In this document: piece by piece, positions 20,593 to 63,301 of the stretch
How the letters are laid out: each line of letters opens with the position of its first letter
Numbering within the stretch: the stretch's first letter is position 1
IMG/VR virus record: IMGVR_UViG_3300028797_000143
Span: 1 to 64,000 of that record
DNA from: a virus
Taxonomy: Duplodnaviria; Caudoviricetes
Reading direction: 5' to 3' (one strand)
DNA length: 64,000 nucleotides
Notes under the pieces: model-generated
Database searches by the model: none
What the model was told of the DNA's origin: nothing
Seen by the model: only the letters and a program-made list of their open reading frames with translations
Program-made: the position numbers and the translations under genes

Positions 20593-20649
20593 CATATAGA
20601 AAGGAAGGGGAAAGACCCCGAAACCAAGAAACCAATTAAACAGAGAAAA

Positions 20650-20772
20650 ATGAAGCAGACAATCAAGAAACTAATGGAAAACAACTCGGAAAGGATAGGT
20701 TCCGTAGTATGTTTCATCGGCCTTATGGTCATGATGTACATGGCGTACAAAGCAATATGGATATTCTACTAA
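20650..20772 (+). CDS. Small single-TM protein, first gene after P1
   Basis: MKQTIKK...; leader has AACCAATTAAACA. Confidence 0.55.
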   Translation: MKQTIKKLMENNSERIGSVVCFIGLMVMMYMAYKAIWIFY

Positions 20773-20792
20773 CCAATTAAACAGATAGAACT

Positions 20793-21149
20793 ATGGAAAC
20801 AAAGAAAATCAAAGTTGACTTGGAAGAAGTCAAGGTCGTAAGCATCATGATAGACCTCGGTAGCCTTGAACGCTACATGGACAGGTTCCTTGCATTGAAG
20901 AATCACGAGAGACATACACGCGAGATTCTTGAAGTGCGCGGCTTCGATGGTTCAAACAGCGTGAGTGTTACGCTCATGATAGATGAGAATGAAGACGAGG
21001 CAAAAGAGGTTGAGCATTGCATGGAGTATGTCGGGCAGTTCGGCAATATAGTCGGGAATCCAGATGTGGACACAGCATTCATCTTTGATAAGGATGCTAA
21101 TGGTATTGATGGCCAACTTGATTGGAAAGAGTTGTACGTAATAAGCTAA
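20793..21149 (+). CDS. Acidic hypothetical protein
   Basis: ORF with conserved leader motif. Confidence 0.7.
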   Translation: METKKIKVDLEEVKVVSIMIDLGSLERYMDRFLALKNHERHTREILEVRGFDGSNSVSVTLMIDENEDEAKEVEHCMEYVGQFGNIVGNPDVDTAFIFDKDANGIDGQLDWKELYVIS

Positions 21150-21153
21150 GGCG

Positions 21154-21327
21154 ATGATGAAAGGTGGTTATACAATGCAAGTCGACATCGAGTTCGAGTT
21201 CGACGAAAGCAAACTAACAGCGTTAGATGTAATGGATCTGTTTGACTACCATGCAAAAGTTAAGGTCAAGCTAAATGACCAAAGAGTGAATATCTTAAAT
21301 GCTCACCTAAAACAAGTAGAACAATAA
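21154..21327 (+). CDS. Small hypothetical protein
   Basis: Hand-translated 57-aa ORF filling the gap. Confidence 0.45.
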   Translation: MMKGGYTMQVDIEFEFDESKLTALDVMDLFDYHAKVKVKLNDQRVNILNAHLKQVEQ

Positions 21328-21329
21328 CT

Positions 21330-21569
21330 ATGGAAAAGAGAAATTGGAAGGCTTTGGCCAGAGAGTTCAGAGAGATGGTAAAGAACACCACCGATGCTAC
21401 AAAGGTTATCGTAAAGGTGGGAGATAATGACATCGCTATATACCCCGCCAAGACGAATCACACGAAAGCATTCTATTGCACGGAAGAGCTGATAGACTTC
21501 TGTAGATGCAAGAGATTGTCAAACCATGTGACAGTAATAGACGGAGTTTGTGTAGCAAAAATCTATTGA
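21330..21569 (+). CDS. Hypothetical protein
   Basis: Operon-spaced ORF. Confidence 0.6.
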   Translation: MEKRNWKALAREFREMVKNTTDATKVIVKVGDNDIAIYPAKTNHTKAFYCTEELIDFCRCKRLSNHVTVIDGVCVAKIY

Positions 21570-21572
21570 GTT

Positions 21573-21803
21573 ATGAATGCATTCAGCTTTGACAACAGAG
21601 GACGTGCCTACGTCTCAGAACAGGAGTTTATGGACTACCTTTCCAAGTCTGCCTACCATGATGACTATACGCAAGAGAGTCGTGAAGAGTGTCAGGTGAA
21701 TGACAAGGATTGGAAGATGTGTGAGTGCCTGCTGTATTTCAATGGCGGCGGGTGTCTGCTCGCAAGATACAACCGAGACTTCAGCTATGGAGAGTTATTC
21801 TAA
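21573..21803 (+). CDS. Hypothetical protein
   Basis: Operon-spaced ORF. Confidence 0.6.
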   Translation: MNAFSFDNRGRAYVSEQEFMDYLSKSAYHDDYTQESREECQVNDKDWKMCECLLYFNGGGCLLARYNRDFSYGELF

Positions 21804-21815
21804 ATCTAAAAGACT

Positions 21816-22166
21816 ATGTTTCTAAGATTTTCAAAAGGAAGCTATCGCCAAGGGAGTAATTATTTGAGCACCATTCGGAAGTGTGTGTTCCTCGGTAACA
21901 CCTTGGTCATGGAGTACGGGAATAAAATAGTAGGCGCCGCATGGTTGCATGAAGAGACGGATAAGACACTTGATTTTGATGTTGTAGTAGCCTCGAAATG
22001 CGAGCTTGGAGCAACCCGTATTGCCCGATACATAAAGAACATGATAGGGAAGTCTAACAAGTTCACAGAAAGCCCAACCTCTAAGAAGCGTAAATATTAC
22101 GTCGAAGAGTGTGAAAGTGACAAGCTACCTATAAATGCTAAATTAGTTCTTTCATTAACCAATTAA
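21816..22166 (+). CDS. Hypothetical protein
   Basis: Operon-spaced ORF. Confidence 0.6.
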   Translation: MFLRFSKGSYRQGSNYLSTIRKCVFLGNTLVMEYGNKIVGAAWLHEETDKTLDFDVVVASKCELGATRIARYIKNMIGKSNKFTESPTSKKRKYYVEECESDKLPINAKLVLSLTN

Positions 22167-22177
22167 ACAAAGAGATT

Positions 22178-22462
22178 ATGAATGTATATCTGCTTATCCA
22201 CGCGATTAACGAGGCCTACAAGTCCTATACATACTATGAAGTAGAGATCTGTTACTCCAATAAGGAGGACGCCTTGGCAGACCTCGAAAAGAAAGTCAAG
22301 TCTATTGAAAACGGGACATCAACAAACTTCCCTGGCGAGTCCATCAAGGGAGAAGAGAATAATGTGCCCTTCGCTCTTAAGTACTACACCTTTGAGTGGA
22401 CTAACGAGGGAGGTGAAAAGATGTTTACGCACTACTATGTGATGGAAATGAAATTAAAGTAA
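22178..22462 (+). CDS. Hypothetical protein
   Basis: Leader motif at 22157. Confidence 0.6.
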   Translation: MNVYLLIHAINEAYKSYTYYEVEICYSNKEDALADLEKKVKSIENGTSTNFPGESIKGEENNVPFALKYYTFEWTNEGGEKMFTHYYVMEMKLK

Positions 22463-22495
22463 CCCATATTATTAACCAATTAAATCAGTAAAGTT

Positions 22496-23476
22496 ATGTT
22501 TGGAAGTATTTCATTTGGCGCTATGCCAAGAATGGCAGCTCCCGCGGTTGCGGAGGCCGTGCCAGAGGTAAACAACGAGAACCAGTTCTTCGATTTTGAG
22601 AAGGAGAAAGTTCAAATCCTGACGCTCGATCAGTTGAAGCGTACCAACATGGAGAACAGGGGTGACGACCGCTCATGTCCTCACGGCATCTACCATCACG
22701 CCCTCATCCAGAAGATTTTGGATATGGCCGAAGAGAACGGCTATGATGCCGAGGTGTATGATTTGTTCGCCACGAACAACAGAGACAAGCAGACGCCGGG
22801 CGTGTCCCTCTATCCCGAGTTGGAACAGCGATATGGCGAGCGTGCCATCGAAGCTCACACCCTCCGAAGAGTGTATGCCAATATCCGCTTGAAGAACTTC
22901 GACACGGAGGAGATGACAACGTGCATGGCTCTCTCCTACACGCAGAAGGGCATCCAAGTCGGCTTTGGCCGTAATGTTAAGGTGTGCCACAATTTGAACA
23001 TTTTAGGCACGGGTCAGTTCGTGACAGACTATTCCATCGGTGCCTTCCACTATGCCAATGGTGACATCTTCAAGACCGACTTGCAAGGTATCTTCAACAA
23101 AATCGGCACATGGCTGAAGACGGCAGAGACCATCATGAAGATGGATGATGAGGTTATCGACAGGATGAAGATGTCCGTCCTCACGGCAGAGCAGCTGTAC
23201 ACCATCCTCGGTATGCTCATGACCATCCGCGTGACGCATGACACGGAGATCAAGTCCATCAAGAGCAATACGGGGACGTACCCCTTGAATCAGGCTCAGA
23301 TTACCAAGTTTACCGAGGGCCTTCTCCTGAAGCAGCAGGAGGCAGGACGCATCACGGCGTGGGATATGTACAACTGCGCTACGGAGCTGTATAAGCCCCA
23401 TATCGTAGACCAGAACCTTATCATCCCGCAGTCCCTTTCTATGAAGACCTTCATGGAGGTGAATCAGCTGTATTAA
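22496..23476 (+). CDS. DUF932-like protein
   Basis: Resembles Bacteroidales mobile-element DUF932 proteins (QVGFG.NV.VC.N; W..YN.ATE..K). Confidence 0.65.
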   Translation: MFGSISFGAMPRMAAPAVAEAVPEVNNENQFFDFEKEKVQILTLDQLKRTNMENRGDDRSCPHGIYHHALIQKILDMAEENGYDAEVYDLFATNNRDKQTPGVSLYPELEQRYGERAIEAHTLRRVYANIRLKNFDTEEMTTCMALSYTQKGIQVGFGRNVKVCHNLNILGTGQFVTDYSIGAFHYANGDIFKTDLQGIFNKIGTWLKTAETIMKMDDEVIDRMKMSVLTAEQLYTILGMLMTIRVTHDTEIKSIKSNTGTYPLNQAQITKFTEGLLLKQQEAGRITAWDMYNCATELYKPHIVDQNLIIPQSLSMKTFMEVNQLY

Positions 23477-23483
23477 CCAACAG

Positions 23484-23507
23484 AGGAGGTGGTTTCGGCC
23501 ACCTCCT
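23484..23507 (+). terminator. Stem-loop after DUF932 gene
   Basis: aggaggtgg-tttcgg-ccacctcct. Confidence 0.6.
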
Positions 23508-23667
23508 ATATATAATAAGGTATATGGAAAATATAGTAGTCTATAAGTACCTCGGTAAAGAGGAACAGCGGAAGCAATTCCCTGACGCTATCAGTGCCTT
23601 TCGCTTTCAGGCGGGGCTTGTAAAGAGTAAGAAGAATCTTGAATATGCAACAGTAAAATAGAATATT

Positions 23668-24183
23668 ATGAGTATCATTATTAAAGGAAAGCCCATGAGC
23701 GAGTACATCAAGGAACAGATGGAAAAGGGCGAAGTATTGGAAAATGTCTATGGAGTACGGGAAGAAGGCCATACTCGTAGTGTCTACCATGGCTCACAGA
23801 TAATCGGTGGTGGGAATATGGTGTTGACCAACAATGCCAGAGTGACCATTTCCAGAGGTGGTAAGAAGTACACCATTAAAGGTAACCGCATCGAGAAAAG
23901 GAATGGTCAGTGGTACGTCGATGGTAAGGCCGTCGATTGGGACAATATCGGAGGTAGGTATGAGGAGGAGTTTACGACCGTGGAGATACATGGTAATGTA
24001 GAGCAGCTTCATACTCAGTCGGGTGATGTCAAGGTTATCGGTGATGTGCAGAACCTCTGTACTACAAGTGGTGATGTAGAGTGTCAGTCGGCATATAATG
24101 TCCACACCACGAGTGGCGATGTAACCTGTAACCAGATAGGCGGTAGTGTTAGTACAATCAGTGGTGATATAAACAGGAAATAG
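23668..24183 (+). CDS. Protein with C-terminal TxSGD(V) beta-helix repeats (DUF4097-like)
   Basis: TQSGDV, TTSGDV x2, TISGDI. Confidence 0.6.
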   Translation: MSIIIKGKPMSEYIKEQMEKGEVLENVYGVREEGHTRSVYHGSQIIGGGNMVLTNNARVTISRGGKKYTIKGNRIEKRNGQWYVDGKAVDWDNIGGRYEEEFTTVEIHGNVEQLHTQSGDVKVIGDVQNLCTTSGDVECQSAYNVHTTSGDVTCNQIGGSVSTISGDINRK

Positions 24184-24186
24184 TGT

Positions 24187-24630
24187 ATGAATAATATCTA
24201 TCATATTCATAAGTCGAGTAATTCGTATTGGAATAACGAATGGTATGATACCGACTTCTATCTCTGTGAGACTGAGGAAGAGTATCAGCAGTTGATGGCT
24301 GAATACAAGACCAAGCGGCAGAAGATAGAGGATGAGTACAATGACGCAAAGGCCAAGGGTGTCGATTTCGGCAGATTGGGGATTTGCGGAGAGCTGTTCA
24401 ATATAAGATGGAGGTATAATAATTTCCGTTTTACACCTGAGCAGAAGGTATATGCCCGTGAATATTACTATGGACATGAGTGGCAGGGCAAGACGTTTGA
24501 TGCTATCGGATTCTGTTGGTTCGAGCGTCTGGAGCGTTCTACGCACACTATGTATTTCTTGAAGCCCGGCAGTGTTGGCACTATCACGCCGTGCACAGAT
24601 CCCGGCATTGGTTGGATGTATGGAAGTTAA
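24187..24630 (+). CDS. Hypothetical protein
   Basis: Operon-spaced ORF. Confidence 0.65.
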   Translation: MNNIYHIHKSSNSYWNNEWYDTDFYLCETEEEYQQLMAEYKTKRQKIEDEYNDAKAKGVDFGRLGICGELFNIRWRYNNFRFTPEQKVYAREYYYGHEWQGKTFDAIGFCWFERLERSTHTMYFLKPGSVGTITPCTDPGIGWMYGS

Positions 24631-24638
24631 TATTGACT

Positions 24639-24800
24639 ATGAGAAAGTATCACTATGAATGGTTCGTCTATACTGACAACCTGAATTATGGACGGCAGTA
24701 TCTTGGCCAGTCGGAAAGCAAGGCGTATGCCAATAGGATTGGTCAGTGGGCTAATAGAGGGTGTTTCGTCTTGGAGAAGCACCGAGTGTATGACAAATAA
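24639..24800 (+). CDS. Small hypothetical protein
   Basis: Start moved to MRKYHYEW. Confidence 0.5.
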   Translation: MRKYHYEWFVYTDNLNYGRQYLGQSESKAYANRIGQWANRGCFVLEKHRVYDK

Positions 24801-24810
24801 AACATAGATT

Positions 24811-25002
24811 ATGAAAGAACGAAAATGGAACAAGTCAGGTTCAAGGATGCTGATAGAAAGCGGCTGGAAGAAGTTTGATGAACAGACGGACGTAATCTCT
24901 ACGGGTAACGTAACGTCTATGCCCATACTCAGTATAGCGGCTTTATCAGACCTTGGAACCTCACGGAGTGTAACGGCTTCAAGTTTGAAGAGGGGCATTT
25001 GA
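24811..25002 (+). CDS. Small hypothetical protein
   Basis: Operon-spaced ORF. Confidence 0.45.
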   Translation: MKERKWNKSGSRMLIESGWKKFDEQTDVISTGNVTSMPILSIAALSDLGTSRSVTASSLKRGI

Positions 25003-25265
25003 TGGAAGCTGATATAAAGCCATTCAAGAACCATCGCATCCCGAAGGACATAGAAGAGTATCTTACCGACAAGAACAGAAAGGATATGGTTATCCTCTAT
25101 ATGTTCTTTGTAAGGAATGACTTTGGTCGTGTTGAACCATTCTGTTACGTGGTGACTGACTACAACCACAAACTGATTATGTATAGGGTTCTGTCACGCG
25201 GTAATCAGAACTATGCGAAGCGGAAAAGAGCAGCAGAAGAGGCTATTAGTTACATCACTGATTGA
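24999..25265 (+). CDS. Hypothetical protein
   Basis: Coupled to previous gene. Confidence 0.55.
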   Translation: MMEADIKPFKNHRIPKDIEEYLTDKNRKDMVILYMFFVRNDFGRVEPFCYVVTDYNHKLIMYRVLSRGNQNYAKRKRAAEEAISYITD

Positions 25266-25412
25266 CACTGAATATGATAGTGAATGGCTATGATATCGTC
25301 TATAGTAGGACGTACATGAAGTTTCAGGTATGGGATTGTGACTTATGCTTGGAAGAGTTTGAGAATATAGAAGATGCAATTAAATTTGCAAATGATAATT
25401 AAATTTACGATT

Positions 25413-25955
25413 ATGAAGATAGTAATAATGAACGTCGGTGATGCCAGAATCGACATCGTTGATGCACCTGACCACCTGATAGGTGATGAGGATATTGAGA
25501 AGTGGCTTTCGGAGAAGGATTTCTATTATCCTGGGATTAGCTCTTGGATGGCTGTCTCCGCGGATTATGTCCCCGTGAGGTTTATCACCTACAATGAGGA
25601 AGGAGAAACTGCTGTCAGCCATTCGAGGATAAACACAGTCCAAGAGATCGTGTATAATGTTAAAGGCAGAGAGAAGCAGGAGCTTATCGATGCGCTTCAG
25701 AAGTATGGCGAGAAAGAGGATGGAGGGTATGAGTACCATTTCCATGGAACAATGCCTTGTATCGCTGCTTATGACTATGACGAGCCTGCAGATGTTGTCG
25801 TGTATGCTGTAAGAGTGAAAGATAATTGGCTATCCCTCATCGTCCGTGGCAAGGAGGAGTACGACGAGGAGCACCAGATTGATGCCGGCGAGGTCTTTGC
25901 CGGGCATTTGGATTTCGTAACAAGTGAAATAATCAACAACCATGGAAAGAAATGA
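25413..25955 (+). CDS. Acidic hypothetical protein
   Basis: Start moved to MKIVIMN. Confidence 0.65.
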   Translation: MKIVIMNVGDARIDIVDAPDHLIGDEDIEKWLSEKDFYYPGISSWMAVSADYVPVRFITYNEEGETAVSHSRINTVQEIVYNVKGREKQELIDALQKYGEKEDGGYEYHFHGTMPCIAAYDYDEPADVVVYAVRVKDNWLSLIVRGKEEYDEEHQIDAGEVFAGHLDFVTSEIINNHGKK

Positions 25956-30069: not shown

Positions 30070-30313
30070 GCGTTTTCAGCAGAATTTCGAAAAAATATCC
30101 CTCAGGGGATACTATAACGGCCTTCCCGAGCGCGTGTCACCTAAGCTACAGTTCCTCGAAGAGATACAGAGGAGGTGTAAGGAAGAGAGTGGCAAGCAGG
30201 TGACGATGGCCACCGTAAGGAATTGGGTACTCTATGGCATCAAGCCGATGAATCCCATTCATGTGAAGGTTATATCCGACATTACTAACATTAAAGAAGA
30301 AGACCTATGGTAG
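30047..30313 (+). CDS. Cro-like HTH protein
   Basis: VTMATVRNWV; first gene of rightward operon. Confidence 0.6.
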   Translation: MENIQSSKRFQQNFEKISLRGYYNGLPERVSPKLQFLEEIQRRCKEESGKQVTMATVRNWVLYGIKPMNPIHVKVISDITNIKEEDLW

Positions 30314-30861
30314 GAGCAGAGTTCTATATTTTCGACAATGAGCTGTGGTGCAAGTCGGACGATGGGAGGAACTTCATCGTTGACGAGACCTGTACGGAGG
30401 TTATCTCTTATATTATAAATAATGTACGCGCGAGATACCCAGAGGCTTACAAGGCTCTCTCCAAGCACTACCAGAAGAGTTCTATCAGTGCATCCTACTA
30501 TCAGTATTTAATGGCAAGGAGGTTCTGTAAGTGCAATTTCGGTTCACTTGATGCCACTTCGGAGGATGTCCGTAATGACGGAGTGTTCAACTTTGAGAAC
30601 GTCCAATGTCCCATGAGAGGGGAGTGTCCCTTGGAGGGTGTTGTATGTAATCCCGTTTTTGATGCTCACCTCTTGAAGTCCGAGATGAGGGTGATGAAGC
30701 TGTGGTATGAAGGACGGACAAAGGAGGAGATAGCCGAGGAGCTGTTCATCTCCCCGGGGACTGTGAAGAATCATATTAAGAGCGCCTACCTGAAGCTTGG
30801 CGTCCATTCGGAGGCTGAGTTTGTGAGGTACGCAAAAGATAATCATTTATTCACCAATTAA
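30307..30861 (+). CDS. Protein with C-terminal LuxR/GerE-type HTH
   Basis: EIAEELFISPGTVKNHIKSAYLKLGV; Cys-containing linker. Confidence 0.85.
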   Translation: MVGAEFYIFDNELWCKSDDGRNFIVDETCTEVISYIINNVRARYPEAYKALSKHYQKSSISASYYQYLMARRFCKCNFGSLDATSEDVRNDGVFNFENVQCPMRGECPLEGVVCNPVFDAHLLKSEMRVMKLWYEGRTKEEIAEELFISPGTVKNHIKSAYLKLGVHSEAEFVRYAKDNHLFTN

Positions 30862-30868
30862 ACGAGTT

Positions 30869-35493: not shown

Positions 35494-35972
35494 TAAGAAG
35501 GACACCTTTGAAAAGGACTTCCAAGAAAAGGGAGCCCAACTATACCGCAGATATGGATAGGGTTTTCCAGTACTATATCAGGCTGAGGGACGTCATGCCG
35601 GGAGGGTATGGGAGATGTATCTCATGCGGTAAGATACGACCTTTCAACCACCTTCAGGCAGGCCATTTTTATAGTCGAAGACATATGAGTACGAGGTGGA
35701 ACGAAGATAACGTCCATGCCGAGTGCGAGGGCTGTAACTGCTTTGATGGCGATCATCTCTTAAGCTACCAGCAGAACCTTGCCAAGAAGATAGGCATGGA
35801 GAGGATGCAATACCTTGCCGTGGCTCATAACCAGACGAGGAATTGGCATCCCTTCGAGATACAGACTATGGTCAAGCACTATGGAGAGGAGGTCATACGC
35901 CTCGCCTCCGTAAAGGGTCTGCCCATTGCCGAGGATGTCATGCGTATCATCAGAAAGTACCAGAAGATGTAA
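35490..35972 (+). CDS. NinG/Rap-like nuclease
   Basis: YIRLRD..CISCG..QAGHF.SR...N.HAECEGCN; ATG 35490. Confidence 0.85.
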   Translation: MIRRTPLKRTSKKREPNYTADMDRVFQYYIRLRDVMPGGYGRCISCGKIRPFNHLQAGHFYSRRHMSTRWNEDNVHAECEGCNCFDGDHLLSYQQNLAKKIGMERMQYLAVAHNQTRNWHPFEIQTMVKHYGEEVIRLASVKGLPIAEDVMRIIRKYQKM

Positions 35973-36043
35973 AAATTGGAGCACGTCTCACGACGGGCTC
36001 CAAATTAACCAATTAAACAGGGAGTTATGAGAACTCGGTCTGT
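35971..36043 (-). ncRNA. Candidate sRNA-1 (about 70 nt), antisense to early-gene leaders
   Basis: Promoter CTTG(36078-81)-N20-TATCTTTG(36050-57); GTGA-looped terminator 35976-36003 plus U tract; no ORF. Confidence 0.65.
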
Positions 36044-36090
36044 TCGGTGCAAAGATACAATGTTATCTTGAATCTTGCAAGTAAATCGGT

Positions 36091-36150
36091 AAAAAGCCTG
36101 CTTCCGCAGGTAGAAAAGAGAGAAAACTCTTGAGAGAAATGGAATTATTT
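36091..36150 (-). ncRNA. Candidate sRNA-2 (about 60 nt)
   Basis: Promoter TTTG(36186-89)-N20-TACCTTTG(36158-65); CCTGC-GGAA-GCAGG terminator plus U tract; no ORF. Confidence 0.55.
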
Positions 36151-36232
36151 AACGATGCAAAGGTATTGATAATTATTGATATATACAAATATATGCAACG
36201 GAATTTCGCGCCTTTCGGCCATTATTTAGTAT

Positions 36233-36279
36233 TTTTAACTATTTTCTTTTGTCTATATGCGAAAAAAGCCGTACCTTTG
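36233..36279 (+). promoter_or_regulatory. Strong early promoter P2
   Basis: TTTTAACTA-N6-TTTG-N20-TACCTTTG. Confidence 0.85.
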
Positions 36280-36315
36280 CATATAGAGAGGAAGAAACTC
36301 TAAAATCACAAAGAA

Positions 36316-36613: not shown

Positions 36614-37000
36614 ATGGATTTGAATCAATTCATCAAGAAAAGCCACCTCCGAGCCGTTGAGAAGTTCAACGCAGATCTGGAGGCATTCGTAAAGGAAACG
36701 GGGGACAATACCCTCTATGAGGACGTAAACACGCCGTTTACCCTTTCAAACGTGAGAGTCGAGAACGGTAAGCTCTGCTACACCTTCGATGGTGCGGAGG
36801 AGAGCGAGAACCAGGTATACTTGGATTCGGAAGATAATCAGTACTACGAGTCCGAGGGCTTGGACAGCATCCCAGAGTATATCAAGTTTTGGAGAGCGTG
36901 CCTCCGGCGTGCGAGGAGATATTGGACGATGAGCCCAGAGCAGCTTGACAGACTCTCCGATGGAGAGGAAGAAGAGGAGGACTCCGAATTAACCGATTAA
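36614..37000 (+). CDS. Acidic hypothetical protein
   Basis: Start moved to MDLNQF. Confidence 0.65.
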   Translation: MDLNQFIKKSHLRAVEKFNADLEAFVKETGDNTLYEDVNTPFTLSNVRVENGKLCYTFDGAEESENQVYLDSEDNQYYESEGLDSIPEYIKFWRACLRRARRYWTMSPEQLDRLSDGEEEEEDSELTD

Positions 37001-37010
37001 ACAGTAACCC

Positions 37011-37036
37011 GCCCTGCGGGTAGTGTCCCGCAGGGC
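37011..37036 (+). terminator. GC-rich stem-loop
   Basis: gccctgcggg-tagtgt-cccgcagggc. Confidence 0.6.
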
Positions 37037-37050
37037 TTAATAATAAGAAT

Positions 37051-40303: not shown

Positions 40304-40329
40304 ACAATAACCAATTAAACAAAGCAGTT

Positions 40330-40898: not shown

Positions 40899-40926
40899 TC
40901 GATTGAATCTCAAAAGATTTTAGTTT

Positions 40927-40973
40927 TTTTAACTATAATAATTTGCAAATATCGCATAAAACCCGTATCTTTG
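40927..40973 (+). promoter_or_regulatory. Strong early promoter P3
   Basis: TTTTAACTA-N6-TTTG-N20-TATCTTTG. Confidence 0.85.
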
Positions 40974-41022
40974 CATAAAGAAAGATAAGAAGAGTACACT
41001 AAACCAATTAAACAGAAAAGTC

Positions 41023-41460
41023 ATGAAAAAGGAAATCAGAAAAGATGTCAGAGAGTACATCCTAAGCAGAGTAAACGAGACGCTGGCACGCCTCGGAGTG
41101 AGCGAGAAGGTCGTAGAGACGAACGAGTGGGAAGATAAGTACCGCGACAAGCTTCACTATAATTTCGAGAGTGCACCCATCAAGCAGATGCCGATGATGT
41201 TCAAGAGACTTGTGGTAAGCGGCCACCTCGTAAGCGTCGAGACGAAAGAAGATGACAGGTTCTTCAAAGTCTCTCAGCAGAACGACATCGTTGTAGCGGT
41301 CTTCGGCTACGAATACAACCACTTCGGAGGAGGCTCCAACGGCTGTGACATAGGCCGCATGGTCTTCGCAGTAAGCAAAGATCTCCCCAAGAGTTTCGAG
41401 AGTGAGATGGGTGATGTGGCAGACGTATATATCCGCAAGTTGGAAGGAGTAACGATATGA
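41023..41460 (+). CDS. Hypothetical protein
   Basis: First gene after P3, leader motif at 41002. Confidence 0.7.
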   Translation: MKKEIRKDVREYILSRVNETLARLGVSEKVVETNEWEDKYRDKLHYNFESAPIKQMPMMFKRLVVSGHLVSVETKEDDRFFKVSQQNDIVVAVFGYEYNHFGGGSNGCDIGRMVFAVSKDLPKSFESEMGDVADVYIRKLEGVTI

Positions 41461-48246: not shown

Positions 48247-48293
48247 TTTTAACTATAATTATTTGCATATTTCGCGGAAAATTTGTATCTTTG
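48247..48293 (+). promoter_or_regulatory. Strong promoter P4 heading the modification cluster
   Basis: TTTTAACTA-N6-TTTG-N20-TATCTTTG. Confidence 0.85.
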
Positions 48294-48393
48294 CATGAAA
48301 TCAATGGATATTATGCTTAATAATAGTTAAATTAAAGGCATTTTGATGATAAAAAGTTCGATAAATCAATTAAACATGTAATTTTGCAAACAG

Positions 48394-56019: not shown

Positions 56020-56559
56020 ATGGCAAACGACAACAAAATGGCAGGATTGGTACACTCCATGCCATCTCCTGTAGGTCACCCTCCACGCTTTAAGACGCCG
56101 AAAGCACTATGGGATAAGTTCGTGGAATACTGCGATTGGATTGATGGTAATCCGTGGCAGGAGAAGACCGCATCTAACGTCCTTGACTCTATTGGCGCTG
56201 GCGAAGAACAGAAACAGAAGAACGCTCTTCGTCAGAATGTGGTAGTAACCCAGAGGGCCTATACTCTATATGGCTTCTGCGCCTATGCAGGCATCCATTA
56301 CAAATGGGCCGACTTCCGTAAGAACTATATCGATAAGACGGGGTTTCCACCTGTCATTGAGCAGATTGAGAATGTCATCTGCGCCCAACAGGTGGATGGA
56401 GCTATGATCAATAAGTTCAACTCTAACCTCGTGGCACGCCTTAACGGATTCGCCGATAAGCAATGGATGGAGCTGACAGGTCGCGGTGGCGATGACTTCA
56501 AGTGGCCTAAACTCACAGATGCGGACATAAAGTATCTTAAAGATGTAAACGGTTTATAA
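56020..56559 (+). CDS. terS: Terminase small subunit (P22 gp3-like)
   Basis: G.PPRFKTP..LW...Y..W...P; F.SNLVARLNG; directly before TerL. Confidence 0.8.
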   Translation: MANDNKMAGLVHSMPSPVGHPPRFKTPKALWDKFVEYCDWIDGNPWQEKTASNVLDSIGAGEEQKQKNALRQNVVVTQRAYTLYGFCAYAGIHYKWADFRKNYIDKTGFPPVIEQIENVICAQQVDGAMINKFNSNLVARLNGFADKQWMELTGRGGDDFKWPKLTDADIKYLKDVNGL

Positions 56560-58037
56560 TGGATTTTCAGCAACAGAAACTTATCCATAAGCAACTGTTA
56601 CTGTCATCAACCCTCCGTTTCACGCAAGGGTTCTTCCAGTACATGAATGGTGCTCCTTACATCGTAGGTGAGCACCATATTAAGATATGCCAATATCTTG
56701 ACAAGGTTGTGAAGGGTGAGATTCAAAAGCTGATAATCAACATAGCTCCGCGCTATGGAAAAACGGAGCTTGTATCCAGAATGTTCCCCGCCTACGGGTT
56801 TGCGCTTAATCCAAGGTCGCTTTTCTTACATCTCAGTTATAGCGGTAGCTTGACACTTGATAATTCCGTTGCAACAAAAGACATTATCAAATCGAAGTAC
56901 TTCCAGAATGTGTTTAATGTAGAGTTTGACCGCCGTATAAATTCAGGCTCGAAATGGAATACAACAGTAGGTGGTGGTGAGTATGCTACCTCTATGCTCG
57001 GACAGATTACAGGTTTCGGTGCAGGTCGTGTAGAGCTTGACTACGATAAGGATGAAGATAAGCTGTTTGATGATTTCACCGCACGTTATAACCCGAATGG
57101 CTTCTCAGGGGCGATTATCATCGATGACCCCATCAAACCAGACGAAGCTTTGAGTGACAAGATACGTGAAAAGGTGAACCTCCGCTTCGAGACAACCATC
57201 CGAAACCGTGTCAACTCCCGCAAGACACCTATCATCATCATCATGCAGCGGCTCCATGAGCATGACCTCTGCGGATACCTTCAGGAGATAGAACCTGACG
57301 AGTGGACTGTCCTCTCACTTCCTGCTATCATGACTGATGGACATGGGAATCAGAGACCGCTATGGCCGTTCAAGTTCACCATCCCCGAGTTGATGAAGAT
57401 TAAGAACGCCAACTCCTATGTCTTCGAGACGCAATACATGCAGAACCCCACCCCGCTCGAAGGACTTATGTACCGCCCGTTCAAGACCTACGAGATACTA
57501 CCTCCGCGTCGCTCTGCGAAGTTTATTGGCAATGTTACCGACCCAGCTGATACGGGAGCGGATTGGCTGTGTTCCATCTGCTTCGATGTACACCCGGAAG
57601 GTTACTATGTCACCGATGTCCTCTATACGAAGAAGCCTGCAGAATACACCGAGCAAGCAATGGCGCAGATGTTATGCAAGAACGAGACGGGTGTTTGCTT
57701 CATAGAGTCCAACAATGGAGGACGATTGTTCATGCGTAACGTGGAGAGGATAACCCGTGAGTACGAAAATAGGCAGACGCAGTTCGTGACCTATACTACC
57801 CACATGAACAAACAGGTGAGAATCTTCTCCCGATCCAATGAGGTGTCTAATATGCTCATCTTCCCACAAGGATGGGAACATAGGTGGCCAGAGTTCTATC
57901 GTGACTTGACATCATACCGAAAAGAGGGCGCGATGGCTCATGACGATGCACCTGACTGCGCAACGGCGGTAATTGAGAGATGTGAGAATTGGGGAGGTAC
58001 GGCTACTGATTCGGAGATACTAAGTGATTTCTTATAA
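56559..58037 (+). CDS. terL: Terminase large subunit
   Basis: PRYGKT Walker A, IIDDP, MQR.HEHDL, C-terminal HDDAPD nuclease motif. Confidence 0.92.
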   Translation: MDFQQQKLIHKQLLLSSTLRFTQGFFQYMNGAPYIVGEHHIKICQYLDKVVKGEIQKLIINIAPRYGKTELVSRMFPAYGFALNPRSLFLHLSYSGSLTLDNSVATKDIIKSKYFQNVFNVEFDRRINSGSKWNTTVGGGEYATSMLGQITGFGAGRVELDYDKDEDKLFDDFTARYNPNGFSGAIIIDDPIKPDEALSDKIREKVNLRFETTIRNRVNSRKTPIIIIMQRLHEHDLCGYLQEIEPDEWTVLSLPAIMTDGHGNQRPLWPFKFTIPELMKIKNANSYVFETQYMQNPTPLEGLMYRPFKTYEILPPRRSAKFIGNVTDPADTGADWLCSICFDVHPEGYYVTDVLYTKKPAEYTEQAMAQMLCKNETGVCFIESNNGGRLFMRNVERITREYENRQTQFVTYTTHMNKQVRIFSRSNEVSNMLIFPQGWEHRWPEFYRDLTSYRKEGAMAHDDAPDCATAVIERCENWGGTATDSEILSDFL

Positions 58038-58038
58038 T

Positions 58039-58677
58039 ATGGAAAAGCTGTCAGTTATTACTATAAACCTCAACAACAAGGAAGGACTTAAGAAGACTAT
58101 AGATAGCGTCATCAAACAGACTTGTTTCAGTCTTCTGGAGTTTATTGTAATCGATGGAGAGAGCACAGATGGAAGCGTAGACGTTATCCGAGAAAACGAA
58201 AGATACTTGAAGTATTGGGTGTCAGAGAAGGATGGTGGAATCTACGATGCCATGAATAAAGGTATACGCATGGCCAACGGGGAATTCTGCCTATTTCTTA
58301 ACAGCGGAGACACATTCCATTCAGAATGCTCCTTTGGCCTATCTATACCATACCTCAACAAAGACATCGTTTATGGCAATATGATAATAGATGGAAAGGT
58401 TGCTACATACCCAGATAGATTAACTAACGGCTATTTCAGATATAACACTCTTCCACACCAAGCTTCGTTTATTCGTACTGCCCTATTGAAGAAGAGAGGA
58501 TATGACACTTCTTATAGAGTTATATCTGATTGGATAAGGTTCAGAGAACTGATAATGGTAGGATGCTCATATAGGCACATAGATGTTCTTGTCAGCGACT
58601 TCGAGCCAGGAGGTATTAGCGCCGATTACAACAAGATAAAGACGGAGCGAAAGAGATATTTGGAATCTATTCAATGA
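58039..58677 (+). CDS. Family 2 glycosyltransferase (host LPS/capsule type)
   Basis: SVITIN.NN..GL..TI.SV..Q...IDG.STDGS...GIYDAMNKG...FLNSGD. Confidence 0.9.
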   Translation: MEKLSVITINLNNKEGLKKTIDSVIKQTCFSLLEFIVIDGESTDGSVDVIRENERYLKYWVSEKDGGIYDAMNKGIRMANGEFCLFLNSGDTFHSECSFGLSIPYLNKDIVYGNMIIDGKVATYPDRLTNGYFRYNTLPHQASFIRTALLKKRGYDTSYRVISDWIRFRELIMVGCSYRHIDVLVSDFEPGGISADYNKIKTERKRYLESIQ

Positions 58678-58686
58678 TTTTAGTAT

Positions 58687-58733
58687 TTTTAACTATAAAT
58701 ATTTGCACAATTCATCAAAAACCCGTACCTTTG
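58687..58733 (+). promoter_or_regulatory. Strong early promoter P5
   Basis: TTTTAACTA-N6-TTTG-N20-TACCTTTG. Confidence 0.85.
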
Positions 58734-58791
58734 TATATAAGAAAGAAAGGAAAGCCCTTTCAAACAGAAACCAATTAAACAGAGTACAGCT

Positions 58792-59256
58792 ATGGGAATG
58801 TTCAGCTTTTTCACACAGGACACCGACGAGAGAATCGTTAATGGCAAGCCAATGCACGTTGTCATGGTAGACAACAAAGGTAATCAGTATGTCGAAGAGT
58901 GCTACGAAGGCTACGGAGTATTTGGAGGCAAGGACTACTACGAACTCCTCGCAGAGATGAATGGTCACGAGGTGGTCAAACTTCTGCACGGCATGGGATA
59001 CGCAGTAGAAGACAAGGATGGTAAGAACCATCACTTCGACTCCGAAGAGCAGGCAAAAGACAAGCTTCGCTCTATAGGCATTGAACTCGCTTTCGACGGA
59101 CACCCTCACGGAGACAATCCGAACGTGTTGCACCCGTCACTCACAGCGAATGGCGAGTATTTCAACGGAGAACCACCCGCCGCAGACCCAGACCAAGGGT
59201 TCACGGATGAGGAGATTTGGGGCGATTACTATGACTTTAACGAGGAGGAAGACTAA
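58792..59256 (+). CDS. Acidic hypothetical protein
   Basis: First gene after P5; leader motif at 58769. Confidence 0.7.
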   Translation: MGMFSFFTQDTDERIVNGKPMHVVMVDNKGNQYVEECYEGYGVFGGKDYYELLAEMNGHEVVKLLHGMGYAVEDKDGKNHHFDSEEQAKDKLRSIGIELAFDGHPHGDNPNVLHPSLTANGEYFNGEPPAADPDQGFTDEEIWGDYYDFNEEED

Positions 59257-59447
59257 TGACACGGCTATTGAAACGCGAAATATGGAGGAACGGAACCTGC
59301 ATTTATTTCATTGAGAAGTATTACGAGAAGTTCGCCTCTGTGCCTCATTGGAGATACGGCGAGTACACAAGCCAAGGTAAGGTTGTCCAGAGTGACGGAT
59401 TACTTAAGAAACCGAGTAAGAAACTAAACTACTTCCAGCTATCATGA
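59256..59447 (+). CDS. Small hypothetical protein
   Basis: Coupled on both sides. Confidence 0.5.
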   Translation: MTRLLKREIWRNGTCIYFIEKYYEKFASVPHWRYGEYTSQGKVVQSDGLLKKPSKKLNYFQLS

Positions 59448-60286
59448 CACAGCTTACAAAGCCCATGTTGGCTACAGGATATGATAAGACCCGTGTGAAG
59501 TTCCCATGCATCGTCCAGACTAAATTGGACGGCGTGAGAGCGCTTCTCTGTTTGATTGGTAATGAGGTACACATCCTTTCACGCACGGGGAAAGAGTATT
59601 ATGTACCACACCTGAGAGAGTGGGCAGAGGGTCACAGAGACCTTCTCCCCCTCGACGGTGAAATCTACGCCTACAAGGATTTGACGTTCCAGCAGATCTG
59701 CTCGGCAGTGAAATGCAAATCGGATTGGACGGATAAGCTTAAGTTCGTGGCGTATGATAGACCAATAACAGAAGAGACAAACATCAAAAGGTGGTCAAAC
59801 CTTCTATCTGACTTGGAAAAGGTACAAGACCCCGTTAATCTCTGCCAGACGATAATATGCCACTCTTTTGAGGAGATAGAACGATGGCATGACTTCTTCG
59901 TACAGCAAGGCTACGAGGGTGCTATCATCCGTAATATGGATGGTATGTATATCGAAGGAAGAAGCGGGAATCTTATGAAGCTGAAGAAATTCGACACTGA
60001 CGAATACGAGATAGCTGATGTGATAGAGGCCAGCGGACAGGACAAGGGCACGGCAATATTCAAGCTGGTGGTGGCCGACTTCCTGTGGACGGAAGAGGCT
60101 CACCCAGCGGGCAAGCCATTTACGTTCTTTGCCCGCCCGACTGGGAGCAAGGTGCTCCGTGCAAGCTATCTGCGAGACCGTGAGAAGCTGATAGGCAAGC
60201 AGTGTACCATCCGGCATTTCGGATTCACGGACGGCGGTGTCATCCCCCGCTTCCCTGTGGCGTTAGGAATTAGAGACTATGAGTAA
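59444..60286 (+). CDS. ATP-dependent DNA ligase
   Basis: KLDGVR, DGEIY, EGAIIR, KLKKF, OB-fold C-terminus. Confidence 0.9.
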   Translation: MTQLTKPMLATGYDKTRVKFPCIVQTKLDGVRALLCLIGNEVHILSRTGKEYYVPHLREWAEGHRDLLPLDGEIYAYKDLTFQQICSAVKCKSDWTDKLKFVAYDRPITEETNIKRWSNLLSDLEKVQDPVNLCQTIICHSFEEIERWHDFFVQQGYEGAIIRNMDGMYIEGRSGNLMKLKKFDTDEYEIADVIEASGQDKGTAIFKLVVADFLWTEEAHPAGKPFTFFARPTGSKVLRASYLRDREKLIGKQCTIRHFGFTDGGVIPRFPVALGIRDYE

Positions 60287-60306
60287 CCAATTAAACAGTA
60301 TGAGTT

Positions 60307-60459
60307 ATGAAGATAGTAACATTGACATTCGTTGTCAGCGACAAGGTGGCTGATGACATTCAGAACGATTTGGCGTGGGGTGATATAGGCAATGCTGTTG
60401 AAACGTTGAATGCGAACTGTGACGAGAGTGACTATGACATAGAAATTATAGACTTATGA
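60307..60459 (+). CDS. Small acidic protein
   Basis: Hand-translated 50 aa; leader motif at 60285. Confidence 0.45.
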   Translation: MKIVTLTFVVSDKVADDIQNDLAWGDIGNAVETLNANCDESDYDIEIIDL

Positions 60460-60463
60460 TGGA

Positions 60464-60496
60464 TAGAGGGAGACTAAGCACTCCCTCTACCTTTTT
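60464..60496 (+). terminator. Intrinsic terminator
   Basis: tagagggag-N8-ctccctcta plus T run. Confidence 0.7.
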
Positions 60497-60501
60497 AGTT
60501 A

Positions 60502-60548
60502 TTTTAACTATTATTCTTTGCGTATCTCACTGAACTTCAGTATCTTTG
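60502..60548 (+). promoter_or_regulatory. Strong early promoter P6
   Basis: TTTTAACTA-N6-TTTG-N20-TATCTTTG. Confidence 0.85.
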
Positions 60549-60604
60549 CATATAGAAAGGAAGGGAGAGCCCTTCGAGTTAAAAACCAATTAAACAAGAA
60601 AGTT

Positions 60605-61276
60605 ATGGAACTAAAAGAAATTCTATTTGGCACCCTGGAGCCGCAAGAGAAGTTGGAGCGCATCAACACCATTTCAGGGAAGACGTTGTTGAAGCCGTAT
60701 GTGATGTTACCCGTCATAAGGCGCATCGTAAAAGAGTGCGGAAAAGAGGGTAACTTCCGTGTTAAGCACGACAGGCAGCTTGGAAATCGATGGAACTCTA
60801 TTGTGAAGGGAATATATAACTACAAAGGAGAAATCTTCGTCGATGTATATATCCAGAGCGATAAGACCGACACCAACATACCAGTCCTCTATGACAACCT
60901 CCTTGGCGGCGGTGTCAGTCGTGTAGAGAGCCACATCGGGAACGCCACGTACCGAGAGGATGAGAAGGAGGCTGTAGTACGAGGGCTTCTTTCAGAGTAT
61001 GTCTATTACAAGTATATCGAGAAGGAGGCGAGAGAAGCGCAGGAGAAGATTGACAACCTACTCCACTACTCGATTACCAATCCCGTTTTTGATTACTACT
61101 ATAAGAGATGGGACGGATGGCATCGTATGGACTTCGACAAAGACCTCAGAAATCGTTATTATGGCGGTAAGGAAGCCGTAGAGGAGTATGCAAAGGCTCA
61201 TGTGGACGAGCTGACAGGCAAGAGCGTCAGTGAGCTTCAAGAGATCTACAAGCAGGTATTCATCGGTAAAATCTAA
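60605..61276 (+). CDS. Hypothetical protein
   Basis: Start moved to MELKEIL; leader motif at 60584. Confidence 0.7.
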   Translation: MELKEILFGTLEPQEKLERINTISGKTLLKPYVMLPVIRRIVKECGKEGNFRVKHDRQLGNRWNSIVKGIYNYKGEIFVDVYIQSDKTDTNIPVLYDNLLGGGVSRVESHIGNATYREDEKEAVVRGLLSEYVYYKYIEKEAREAQEKIDNLLHYSITNPVFDYYYKRWDGWHRMDFDKDLRNRYYGGKEAVEEYAKAHVDELTGKSVSELQEIYKQVFIGKI

Positions 61277-61281
61277 CAGCT

Positions 61282-62191
61282 ATGAAAGGTCAGTTCACGA
61301 AGCCCATAGGCTATATAGAGGAAATCGGCGGTTATGTCATCAAGAAGATATACGACCGCGGAAAGAAGTACATCGTATGGAAGGGCGCTATCTATTGGAG
61401 GTTCGCCAACATACAGCAGGCGCGAAAGTTCGCAACGGAAAGAATACAAAACCAACAACTGAAATTCCTATGAAACAGATAAGTATTGAAGAGGTAAGAA
61501 ACAGCCTCGTAGAGCAGATAAAGGTCAAGCTGAACAAATGCGATGGCAAGTATTATTATTTCGAGGAGTATTTAAATGAGTGCTTCCTCGTCTCTGGCCA
61601 ATGGGTTCCATGCGCTGGCGTTAAGTTGAAGGAAAATGGAGTCCTTGTGTTTGATGTTACCATCATTAACGTGCATGATATTGAAGTGGGGTATAACGAC
61701 CTGATGGTAGAGTCACTTCAAAACATCTTGGATGCAATTCCTTTCGAGGTGCACAAGTTGGAGATAAAGGCTTGTCAAATATCGTCAGCAGAAGTGATGA
61801 CCGTCTTGGAGAAGGAACTATCATATCTCCCATCAGGCGACGAATGCTATTCTATTCTTGACGACTTCCTCGGTGCCGGGTGGGTGCGCGAAGAGGATGA
61901 CCCATATCAGTATTATAAGTACCCGAATACGGAAGACGATAAACATTGGCTCAGTGCCTATTTCAGCTGATGGAACAGAGTATAGATACAAGAACAGCCT
62001 TCATGGAGCTGCAGGCCGCAAGGGACAGGTACAGGAGATTCATGAAGACGTATTGGGACAAAGAGCGCAATCAAGTCATGACCTCCCAACTGAAGACGTT
62101 TGCCATCATCTTCAAGGCAGGCATCATCGCGAGGATGCGGTATGACAAGAGCCTGCTCCAAGCAAAGCGGAAGCTTACTTTAAGTCTTTGA
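61282..62191 (+). other. Hypothetical genes 61282-61473, 61470-61970, 61970-62191
   Basis: Coupled ORFs; starts adjusted to in-frame ATGs. Confidence 0.55.
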
Positions 62192-62201
62192 TTTTCAGTA
62201 T

Positions 62202-62248
62202 TTTTAACTAAAATAGTTTGCGCGTATGCGCAAAAATGCGTACCTTTG
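62202..62248 (+). promoter_or_regulatory. Strong early promoter P7
   Basis: TTTTAACTA-N6-TTTG-N20-TACCTTTG. Confidence 0.85.
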
Positions 62249-62306
62249 CATATAAGGAAGAAGGAGGAGTGCTCCTTTAATCAAGAACCAATTAAACAGA
62301 AAAGTT

Positions 62307-62774
62307 ATGTTACAGACAGAGTTTTACGAAAGGACAAAGGACAACCTCACAGGTGAGGAGTACGCAAAGGTAGAACATCTCTACAATTCAGTCCAGATGG
62401 ATAAGGATGAGTTCTGCAGAGAGTGGATGCGTCACGAGAGGGACGATAAGATGATAGCAGAGCTGATGGTCACCATCAACAACTTGGAACGCAAGAGCCA
62501 GGAGTTGGAGTTAGACAACAAGCGCCTCATGAATGACTTCAAGAAGGCCATGAGGCAGCACGAGGAAGAAGTTAAAAGTGATGCCGCTGCCTATAAGAGA
62601 AGCATGGAGGACTTCGGGCGCAAGATCATCGTGAACGCAAGCGACGATTCCTGCCTTTACAGCATCATCGAGGAGGAGTTCGGAATAGACTTCATCATCA
62701 TGGTAAAGCTTGAAGAGGACATCGACTTGGAGAAGTCCGAGAGAGAGTATCTTGCCAACAAACTAAAGCGCTAA
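62307..62774 (+). CDS. Coiled-coil hypothetical protein
   Basis: First gene after P7; leader motif at 62286. Confidence 0.7.
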   Translation: MLQTEFYERTKDNLTGEEYAKVEHLYNSVQMDKDEFCREWMRHERDDKMIAELMVTINNLERKSQELELDNKRLMNDFKKAMRQHEEEVKSDAAAYKRSMEDFGRKIIVNASDDSCLYSIIEEEFGIDFIIMVKLEEDIDLEKSEREYLANKLKR

Positions 62775-62778
62775 GAAG

Positions 62779-63294
62779 ATGTTACGGTTTGCCTTATTGA
62801 ACTACACTCCCAAGCGGTATATGAGACGTGCCAGCTTCGAGGCGCAGGAGTCAAATCGTTACATCATTGACTTCAAGAACGGACGCAAGTATGCCATCCG
62901 AATCATAACGGATATGGTTTGTGAGACGCTATCGAAGACGAACATGGATAACACCATTATCGTGAACATCCCTGCAAGCTGTGAGAGGACAACAGAGCGG
63001 AGGTACAGGACGTTCATGAATGATGTGTGTGACAGGTGCGGGGCTGTGAATGGCTTCGGGCATGTCCATGTCTTTGGGAAGAGGGAGAAGTCACATATCA
63101 TACGTCACCACAGCCACCTTGACAATGTGAGGATAGACAATGACTTCTTCCGTGGTCGCAGGGTGATAGTGGTTGATGACATCTGTACCACAGGACAGAC
63201 ATCAAATAGTTTCATAGAACGCCTGAAGATGGCAGGTGCCGATGTTCGGATGGCGTTATTCATAGCAAAGACAAAGAAATTCAAAACCAATTAA
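62779..63294 (+). CDS. Phosphoribosyltransferase-fold protein (ComF-like)
   Basis: VIVVDDICTTGQT PRPP-binding motif. Confidence 0.85.
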   Translation: MLRFALLNYTPKRYMRRASFEAQESNRYIIDFKNGRKYAIRIITDMVCETLSKTNMDNTIIVNIPASCERTTERRYRTFMNDVCDRCGAVNGFGHVHVFGKREKSHIIRHHSHLDNVRIDNDFFRGRRVIVVDDICTTGQTSNSFIERLKMAGADVRMALFIAKTKKFKTN

Positions 63295-63301
63295 ACAGAT
63301 T

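Follow-up and report, generated by a model that had tools for sequence, protein, structure and literature searches.

The c4 RNA of phages P1 and P7 (immI) is a small phage antisense RNA that acts in trans on complementary sites, at or close to a translation start, and keeps lytic functions off; the sar RNA of P22 and the CI RNA of P4 are its relatives in logic. The role of immI in P1/P7 heteroimmunity has been described (PMC6906374). Cluster K mycobacteriophages carry start-associated sequences (SAS) and their extended forms (ESAS); SAS is a 13-bp asymmetric repeat with 11-19 copies, each a few bases ahead of a start codon that is mostly ATG (PMC3203893). It was described in 2011, and its function is still open (PMC12699233). 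Here we analysed a 13-nt sequence, AACCAATTAAACA (the tag), that stands before start codons in the virus record IMGVR_UViG_3300028797_000143. The stretch analysed (the window) covers 64,000 nt, positions 1 to 64,000 of the record; the whole record is 88,861 bp (88.9 kb), and coordinates above 64,000 lie beyond the window. The tag is probably the seed target of one phage antisense small RNA (sRNA) that blocks many translation starts, and a cognate sRNA gene is predicted at 35971-36044 on the minus strand. SAS is the closest match in appearance and the c4 RNA of P1/P7 the closest in mechanism.

SAS and the tag are both 13 bp long and asymmetric, occur in one orientation near start codons in non-structural regions, precede non-homologous genes, sometimes contain the stop codon of the upstream gene and are essentially absent from the host genome. 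About half of the SAS copies have an extra upstream inverted repeat, and half of the tag copies have an upstream element. ESAS consists of 17-bp inverted repeats, whereas the upstream element here is a promoter followed by a short 5' leader hairpin. The SAS consensus GGGATAGGAGCCC has an AGGAG Shine-Dalgarno core; the tag is unrelated in sequence and has no such core, and for these reasons it is not a member of the SAS family. A cognate antisense RNA gene was identified here and none has been reported for SAS. In c4, the RNA and its target sites covary between heteroimmune relatives, as they do here between lineages. The differences from c4 are that c4 has two target sites in one operon and is processed from the target transcript, whereas here a dozen or more identical tags are dispersed and the sRNA has its own predicted promoter. 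There is no sequence or Rfam similarity to c4, and the host is a member of the Bacteroidota, without Hfq or use of Shine-Dalgarno pairing.

The window contains 11 exact copies of the tag, all on the plus strand, against 0.01 expected from dinucleotide-preserving shuffles. The whole record has 12 forward copies and no reverse copy, the twelfth being at 81478. With up to 2 mismatches allowed, 18 matches were found in the window (1.9 expected). Every exact copy is in coding orientation, and 4-10 nt (mode 8) separate the end of the motif from the ATG of the next open reading frame (ORF). With its context the tag extends over ~24 nt: the 13-mer, then 4-10 nt of spacer, frequently with AGTT at its end, and the ATG. 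At least 14 translation starts in the phage are tagged. Six of the 12 exact copies lie within the leaders of promoter cassettes (listed further below), five are intercistronic and without a promoter, and the remaining one is the copy at 36007. In the six copies outside cassettes, identity is limited to the 13 nt and the flanks are unrelated. The stop codon of the upstream ORF lies inside or against the tag at four exact and two near copies. Nearly all of the tagged genes are ORFans in non-structural regions; the tail genes (1-13.8 kb, minus strand), the operon at 16.8-20.5 kb and the large terminase gene at 56559 have no tag copy before them. The exact and near copies discussed here are as follows.

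20630-20642, plus strand: exact copy after promoter cassette P1 and its hairpin; 7 nt to ATG 20650 (40-aa ORF)
20771-20783, plus strand: exact copy, intercistronic; the upstream stop (T+AA) abuts the tag; 9 nt to ATG 20793
22157-22169, plus strand: exact copy, intercistronic; TAA of ORF 21816-22166 within the tag; 8 nt to ATG 22178
22474-22486, plus strand: near copy AACCAATTAAATC with 2 mismatches, before ATG 22496 (326 aa); predicted sRNA duplex -26.3 kcal/mol
30852-30864, plus strand: near copy CACCAATTAAACG with 2 mismatches; contains the stop of the LuxR-type gene 30307-30861 and precedes an Erf-like gene (ATG 30869); predicted sRNA duplex -27.2 kcal/mol
36007-36019, plus strand: exact copy, followed only by a 14-codon ORF; its complement is the seed region of the predicted sRNA
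36991-37003, plus strand: near copy AACCGATTAAACA with 1 mismatch; contains the stop of ORF 36614-37000
40309-40321, plus strand: exact copy, 5 nt past the DnaB stop and 8 nt to ATG 40330
41002-41014, plus strand: exact copy in the leader of a promoter cassette with its -7 box at 40966; 8 nt to ATG 41023
48364-48376, plus strand: near copy AATCAATTAAACA with 1 mismatch; promoter -7 box at 48286 upstream; 17 nt to ATG 48394
58769-58781, plus strand: exact copy with promoter (58726) and hairpin (58745-58761) upstream; 10 nt to ATG 58792
60285-60297, plus strand: exact copy, intercistronic; the stop of ORF 59444-60286 abuts; 9 nt to ATG 60307
60584-60596, plus strand: exact copy with promoter (60541) and hairpin (60560-60575) upstream; 8 nt to ATG 60605
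62286-62298, plus strand: exact copy with promoter (62241) and hairpin (62261-62277) upstream; 8 nt to ATG 62307
63285-63297, plus strand: exact copy, intercistronic; the stop of ORF 62779-63294 within the tag; 4 nt to ATG 63302

An earlier note on this DNA, made from the letters alone, had reported ten exact copies, and all ten of its coordinates are right; the exact copy at 36007 was missed. Its near copies at 22474, 30852 and 36991 were found where it had put them, and the one given as 48365 begins at 48364. Its spacing of 4-10 nt to the ATG was borne out, the copy map agrees with its failure to see the motif before tail or terminase genes, and the comparison with shuffled controls that it had proposed is the one given above. 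The near copy at 36991 has, in place of an ATG, a 9-bp G+C hairpin without a U-tract (36991-37050), and the next ATG is 48 nt away; this copy is probably a decayed or displaced tag.

The exact copy at 36007 leads no gene. Its plus strand has only the 14-codon ORF, and no conserved ORF was found on either strand, relatives included. Among the 16 exact and near copies, it alone is flanked by antisense signals, a -7 box downstream and a terminator upstream, and the minus strand was annotated as follows.

35971-36044, minus strand: predicted anti-leader sRNA of ~74 nt, 5' end inferred; fold z-score -4.5
36050-36081, minus strand: predicted sRNA promoter, CTTG, 20 nt, then TATCTTTG (-7 box 36057-36050)

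The predicted sRNA consists of a 5' hairpin, a single-stranded UAAUUGGUU (36015-36007), and a terminator stem (36003-35976) with a GUGA loop and five U residues; in DNA the terminator reads TTGGAGCCCGTC-GTGA-GACGTGCTCCAA followed by T5. The UAAUUGGUU linker is the complement of AACCAAUUA, the invariant core of the tag, and the 5' arm of the sRNA is able to extend the pairing up to the AUG. Fourteen start regions pair with the sRNA at -21 kcal/mol or below, compared with a median of -11.7 over 144 start regions, in energies that ignore intramolecular structure. The AGTT that precedes the ATG complements the AACU next to CAU in the sRNA, and it is found at 6 of 13 tagged starts versus 4 of 131 other starts (Fisher p = 3e-5). 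The locus scored 36 bits with a covariance model whose seed included this sequence. One extra match to the model, at 81325-81403 on the plus strand, was rejected, being only the terminator of a plus-strand gene that shares CGTCGTGAGA. This gene (80442 to ~81209, plus strand, beyond the window) is likelier to be real than the longer minus-strand ORF 80316-81323, and the terminator of the sRNA has CGTCGTGAGA and the GTGA loop in common with its own (~81360-81400). No Rfam family reached the gathering threshold in the window, and nothing relevant was found at E<=1 in 35900-36300; a U6atac match with E = 0.08 was regarded as noise.

The record is that of a temperate siphovirus-like phage with integrase, tape-measure protein, large terminase subunit, portal and major head proteins, and the same record encodes DnaB, an Erf-like protein, an Ant/KilAC antirepressor, a reverse transcriptase and several helix-turn-helix (HTH) regulators. 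Its promoters are of the Bacteroidota type, TTTG-N19-21-TAnnTTTG. A megablast of 22 kb against GenBank phages gave no match. The closest large terminase in a named genome is that of a prophage of Segatella copri N016-9 (64% identity), and the host group of the phage carrying the tag is gut Bacteroidales of the Segatella/Prevotella type.

A related tag precedes ATGs in 80 IMG/VR contigs whose DnaB is 51-53% identical; it reads TTGAACCAATTAAAAT... or, in one lineage, TAGAACCAATTAAAT.... The core AACCAATTA is invariant across the leaders of related phages, in lineages with ~50% identical proteins. In these relatives a homologous antisense unit runs from a perfect TTTG-N20-TACCTTTG promoter to a terminator, and its plus strand contains no ATG or only 8-20 codons. 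In one variant (L158), a 1-nt deletion at the unit would break any reading frame. The unit is also present in the S. copri N016-9 prophage and in an independent 67-kb provirus (G002) with five tagged leaders. Five lineages share one fold, with a 5' hairpin of lineage-specific sequence, an unpaired UAAUUGGUU (probability 0.81-0.91) and a terminator (z-scores -4.5 to -7.4). The terminator stems differ between lineages by compensatory changes, and UAAUUGGUU is invariant in 14 variants from the five lineages. Among five whole records, three had tags (5-7 each, all forward) together with one strong sRNA match each, and two had neither.

Beyond the invariant core, the flanks of each lineage's sRNA fit the leader variant of the same lineage up to the AUG:

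This phage: leader ...ACAG..AGTTATG; sRNA CAUAACUCCCUGUUUAAUUGGUU
G002: leader ...ACATC..ATTATG; sRNA CAUAAUCGAUGUUUAAUUGGUU
Main S. copri group: leader TTGAACCAATTAAAATTATAAAGATTATG; sRNA UAUAAUCUUUAUAGGAUUUUAAUUGGUUCAA
L191: leader TAGAACC...; sRNA ...GGUUCUA

The leaders of this phage form duplexes of -24.5 kcal/mol on average with the cognate sRNA, versus -13 to -18 kcal/mol with foreign sRNAs, and the L191 lineage gave the same pattern of cognate duplexes stronger than non-cognate ones. In the main lineage, the sRNA locus differs from the leader consensus by a CC insertion and by ATA in place of ATG; the insertion provides the GG that closes the 5' hairpin of the sRNA itself.

Several wider searches were set aside. 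A scan of IMG/VR for the 13-mer followed by G returned 119 single chance matches and was uninformative. A scan for an anti-tag followed by a terminator returned 21 matches, of which 20 were due to chance and one was the true relative G002. Repeated 10-mers in other Bacteroidales prophages (L219, L221, L222, L232, L207 and L196) were clustered iterons or tandem repeats not linked to starts, and the GTAGTACCAA repeats of L205 resemble operators at one promoter.

In the mechanism that we propose, the seed of the sRNA would pair with the tag and the duplex would spread over positions -21 to +3, covering the A-rich, Shine-Dalgarno-independent landing site of the ribosome. Translation of the tagged set would be repressed jointly, and the mRNAs may be destabilised. 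Such an RNA could contribute to prophage immunity at the RNA level or switch the tagged set off at a given stage. From the sequence we infer that the sRNA is transcribed and pairs with the leaders in vivo, as well as the direction and timing of its effect.

A number of points weigh against this mechanism, apart from the simplification in the duplex energies. The -33 element of the sRNA promoter is imperfect in this phage (CTTG), and the G002 promoter has no clear element other than the -7 box. The anti-AUG arm of the sRNA is held in its own 5' hairpin, and the extended pairing requires the strand to open. The covariation could come in part from concerted evolution of all tag copies, the copy at the sRNA locus included, and recombination could keep the twelve identical copies alike, the cassettes being mosaic junctions. 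The tag is also a good start region of the host type, so that part of its conservation needs no RNA partner. Finally, to our knowledge Bacteroidota have no Hfq.

A second anti-tag was found beyond the window, at 66574-66589 on the plus strand, and is a perfect 16-nt complement of the start region of the Ant/KilAC gene (66743). It is part of TTTCTTTCTGTTTAATTGG (66574-66592), which lies in the 3' untranslated region of the LuxR-type gene 65985-66572, between the stop codon and the terminator, and which also matches 11 nt of the shared tag. Judged from its sequence, this arrangement would echo the c4-ant pair of P1/P7 and the sar-ant pair of P22. A third copy of the anti-11-mer, TGTTTAATTGG, was observed at 64083-64093 (plus strand) inside the tagged gene 63302-64201, where ~0.02 would be expected by chance. 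Adjoining the first antisense unit is a second small one, running from 36152 to 36091 on the minus strand, with a TTTG-N20-TACCTTTG promoter, a length of ~60 nt and the terminator CCTGCGGAAGCAGG followed by T5. It contains UUCCAUUUCU, complementary to the start of gene 36316, and a homologue lies at the same place in the relatives.

Bacteroidales hosts start translation without Shine-Dalgarno pairing, and S. copri has been reported to have no consensus ribosome-binding site. The tag could accordingly be a cis-acting initiation element, a standby site or enhancer read by the 30S subunit, S1 or another protein, on the lines suggested for SAS, with the antisense unit incidental or a minor modulator. 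A host matrix was built from 251 S. copri start regions; A peaked at -14 to -11, -6 and -3, and T at -1, in the known A-rich pattern. Tagged starts score at about the 85th percentile of this matrix and other phage ORF starts at the 19th. The 3' half of the tag, ATTAAACA (about -16 to -9), is a host-like A-rich start region, and the A at -14 to -11 and the T at -1 that the host prefers are supplied by the tag and by TTATG. The fixed spacing to the ATG and the predicted unpaired state of the tag in its leaders (probability 0.68-0.97) also agree with a cis-acting element.

Thirteen invariant bases, however, are more than an A-rich unstructured region requires. The 5' half of the tag, CCAATT, was absent from the 251 sampled host leaders, and pairing of the tag with 16S rRNA was no better than chance (best 8 nt, GUUUAAUU at position 953, -7.5 kcal/mol). 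This duplex energy was reached by 131 of 300 shuffled motifs, which gives no support to an rRNA-complementary enhancer of the Shine-Dalgarno or epsilon-like type. A phage-encoded reader in the form of ribosomal protein S21 or a sigma factor was also rejected, since neither S21 nor sigma region 2 was found in the phage. A cis-acting element leaves unexplained the antisense promoter, the terminator and the exposed anti-tag seed that are conserved in five lineages, and we consider it an unlikely explanation of the tag taken alone. Because the ATTAAACA half is host-like, the tag would have a second role as a start signal, and be start signal and address label at once.

That the motif might be a generic host leader sequence was a possibility raised by the earlier note. 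In the S. copri N016-9 genome (3.8 Mb), nine copies of the 11-mer AACCAATTAAA were counted: eight are inside the prophage at C1:510-574 kb, and the one outside it (G001:C1:1165078) does not stand at the start of a gene. This excludes a generic host leader for S. copri N016-9. Two clusters of small genes have a different class of start region, in which a Shine-Dalgarno-like (A)GGAGGA(C/T)T precedes the ATG by 5-8 nt (43474, 43791, 45555 and 46052 in the window; 83021, 83210, 83787 and 85012 beyond it). This class stands out in a phage whose host clade is reported to have no consensus ribosome-binding site.

Ten near-identical promoters form one cassette family, with an UP-like box (A)GTATTTTTAACTA, the promoter TTTG-N20-TAyCTTTG and then CATATAGAAAGG. 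Six of the ten have an exact tag 30-45 nt downstream, two have only ATTAAACA, one has a tag with 1 mismatch and one has none. The members described in detail are:

20545-20652, plus strand: cassette P1, with the UP-like box TTTTTAACTA (20545-20554), TTTG-N20-TACCTTTG (-7 box 20585), CATATAGAAAGG, hairpin 20607-20619, tag and ATG
40926-41025, plus strand: cassette of the same family, without a hairpin
58686-58794, plus strand: cassette of the same family, hairpin GAAAGG-AAAGC-CCTTTC
60502-60607, plus strand: cassette of the same family, hairpin GAAGGG-AGAG-CCCTTC
62201-62309, plus strand: cassette of the same family, hairpin AAGGAG-GAGTG-CTCCTT

The four purine-loop hairpins named in the earlier note all exist upstream of the tag. 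In the predicted leaders they form the stems nearest the 5' end (20607-20619, 58745-58761, 60560-60575 and 62261-62277); they lie downstream of the promoter, and have no U-tracts and no common or box-B-like sequence. All ten cassette promoters have the (A)GTATTTTTAACTA box, with a few bases between it and the -33 element downstream, at 20545, 36232, 40926, 48247, 58686, 60502 and 62201 in the window and at 66657, 71547 and 81401 beyond it. It could be an UP element or an operator or activator site; two LuxR-type HTH genes are present.

In the relatives, 65 distinct cassettes have a mean pairwise identity of 0.94 at -30 to -1 and of ~0.45 just past the ATG, and 15 different ORF starts stand behind five upstream types. 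From this drop in identity at the ATG and the 15 different ORFs that follow, the cassettes are taken to be mosaic junctions, like the PeSLs of T4-type phages. PeSLs are cassettes of a host-type early promoter and a stem-loop, placed before small ORFans at mosaic breakpoints (PMC2839356, PMC4122927). The ten near-identical strong host-type promoter cassettes likewise flank ORFans, with the breakpoint at the ATG in relatives. They differ in that the PeSL stem-loop is a terminator upstream of the promoter, whereas the hairpin here is in the 5' leader and has no U-tract. The 13-mer also occurs without a cassette, and no antisense partner has been described for PeSLs. In the region after DnaB of the relatives L128-L204, the cassette was observed as a sharp mosaic boundary: in phages that are alike in other respects, one leader is followed immediately by at least 15 unrelated ORFs.

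The tag might be a passive junction, a stretch of homology for gene shuffling that is kept by recombination and has no regulatory role of its own, and the ORFan nature of most tagged genes and the PeSL precedent (PMC2839356) would suit it. We regard this as very unlikely. The six copies outside cassettes share only 13 nt between unrelated flanks, the core is invariant between lineages with ~50% identical proteins, and the antisense unit is left unexplained. Shuffling may equally be a consequence of a conserved regulatory sequence as its purpose.

The stoperators of mycobacteriophage L5 and Cluster A are DNA sites for a repressor and are not locked to start codons. They have been contrasted with SAS (PMC3203893). 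Like them, the tags are many dispersed 13-bp asymmetric sites, in one orientation with respect to transcription, in short intergenic gaps where they overlap stop codons, and the phage encodes several HTH regulators that might act on such sites to block elongating RNA polymerase. The tags differ in their start-codon locking and in having a predicted RNA partner. RNA pairing suits the tight ATG spacing, and a conservation that in relatives covers 29 nt and reaches AGTTATG, better than the site of a monomeric HTH protein does, no candidate binder was identified, and the antisense RNA architecture would again go unexplained; a DNA-level site of this kind has a slight chance at best.

The tag is barely credible as a nut-like site for antitermination, or as a promoter at which a phage-specific sigma factor or RNA polymerase would start leaderless mRNAs. 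Four copies do follow a hairpin downstream of promoters, and the 4-10 nt before the ATG are similar to the gap between a -10-like element and the start of transcription. But half of the copies lack a hairpin, six of the 12 have neither promoter nor hairpin, and all copies are ATG-locked. The hairpins share no sequence, unlike the boxA and conserved boxB hairpin of lambda-type nut sites, which are independent of start codons. Strong host-type promoters stand 30-45 nt upstream of six copies, and the phage has no sigma region 2 and no RNA polymerase among the listed families or scanned proteins.

The earlier note had taken the motif for a post-transcriptional regulon tag that acts as an sRNA target, a translational enhancer or a nut-like antitermination site, and this was upheld in part. 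The sRNA target is supported by comparison: five lineages conserve the cognate antisense gene (here at 35971-36044, minus strand), and its sequence changes together with that of the tag. The enhancer agrees with the host-type start score and disagrees with the CCAATT half, never seen in the sampled host leaders; the nut-like site was not supported.

Beyond the window, the reverse transcriptase gene (PHROG 1423) lies at 86715-88013 on the minus strand and suggests a diversity-generating retroelement.

The pairing of tag and anti-tag could also explain the SAS of mycobacteriophages, by analogy, and gives a concrete, testable hypothesis for them. In Adephagia (L292, JF704105), the only reverse-oriented SAS, at 58682-58694, was observed in the apical loop of a ~20-bp hairpin within the 430-bp non-coding gap between gp92 and gp93, which makes an anti-SAS RNA possible there. 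Phage TM4 has no anti-SAS copy with fewer than 3 mismatches.

Gene regulation in Bacteroidales phages is little known, and RNA-level switching without Shine-Dalgarno pairing is an open subject. What is new here is a proposed antisense control in which one sRNA would face many dispersed tagged starts. The system is present in a prophage of the cultured strain S. copri N016-9 and is directly testable there, and tag/anti-tag pairs might serve as orthogonal translational switches in Bacteroidota. It is possible, if on the doubtful side, that such pairs form an RNA immunity or timing code in Segatella phages, in which each sRNA would silence only the leaders of its own variant and so define heteroimmunity groups. 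As a portable label on a dozen or more starts, the tag would link regulation to mosaic gene exchange at the cassettes; if antisense control by one sRNA holds true, a tagged cassette would bring any new gene that lands behind it into the regulon.

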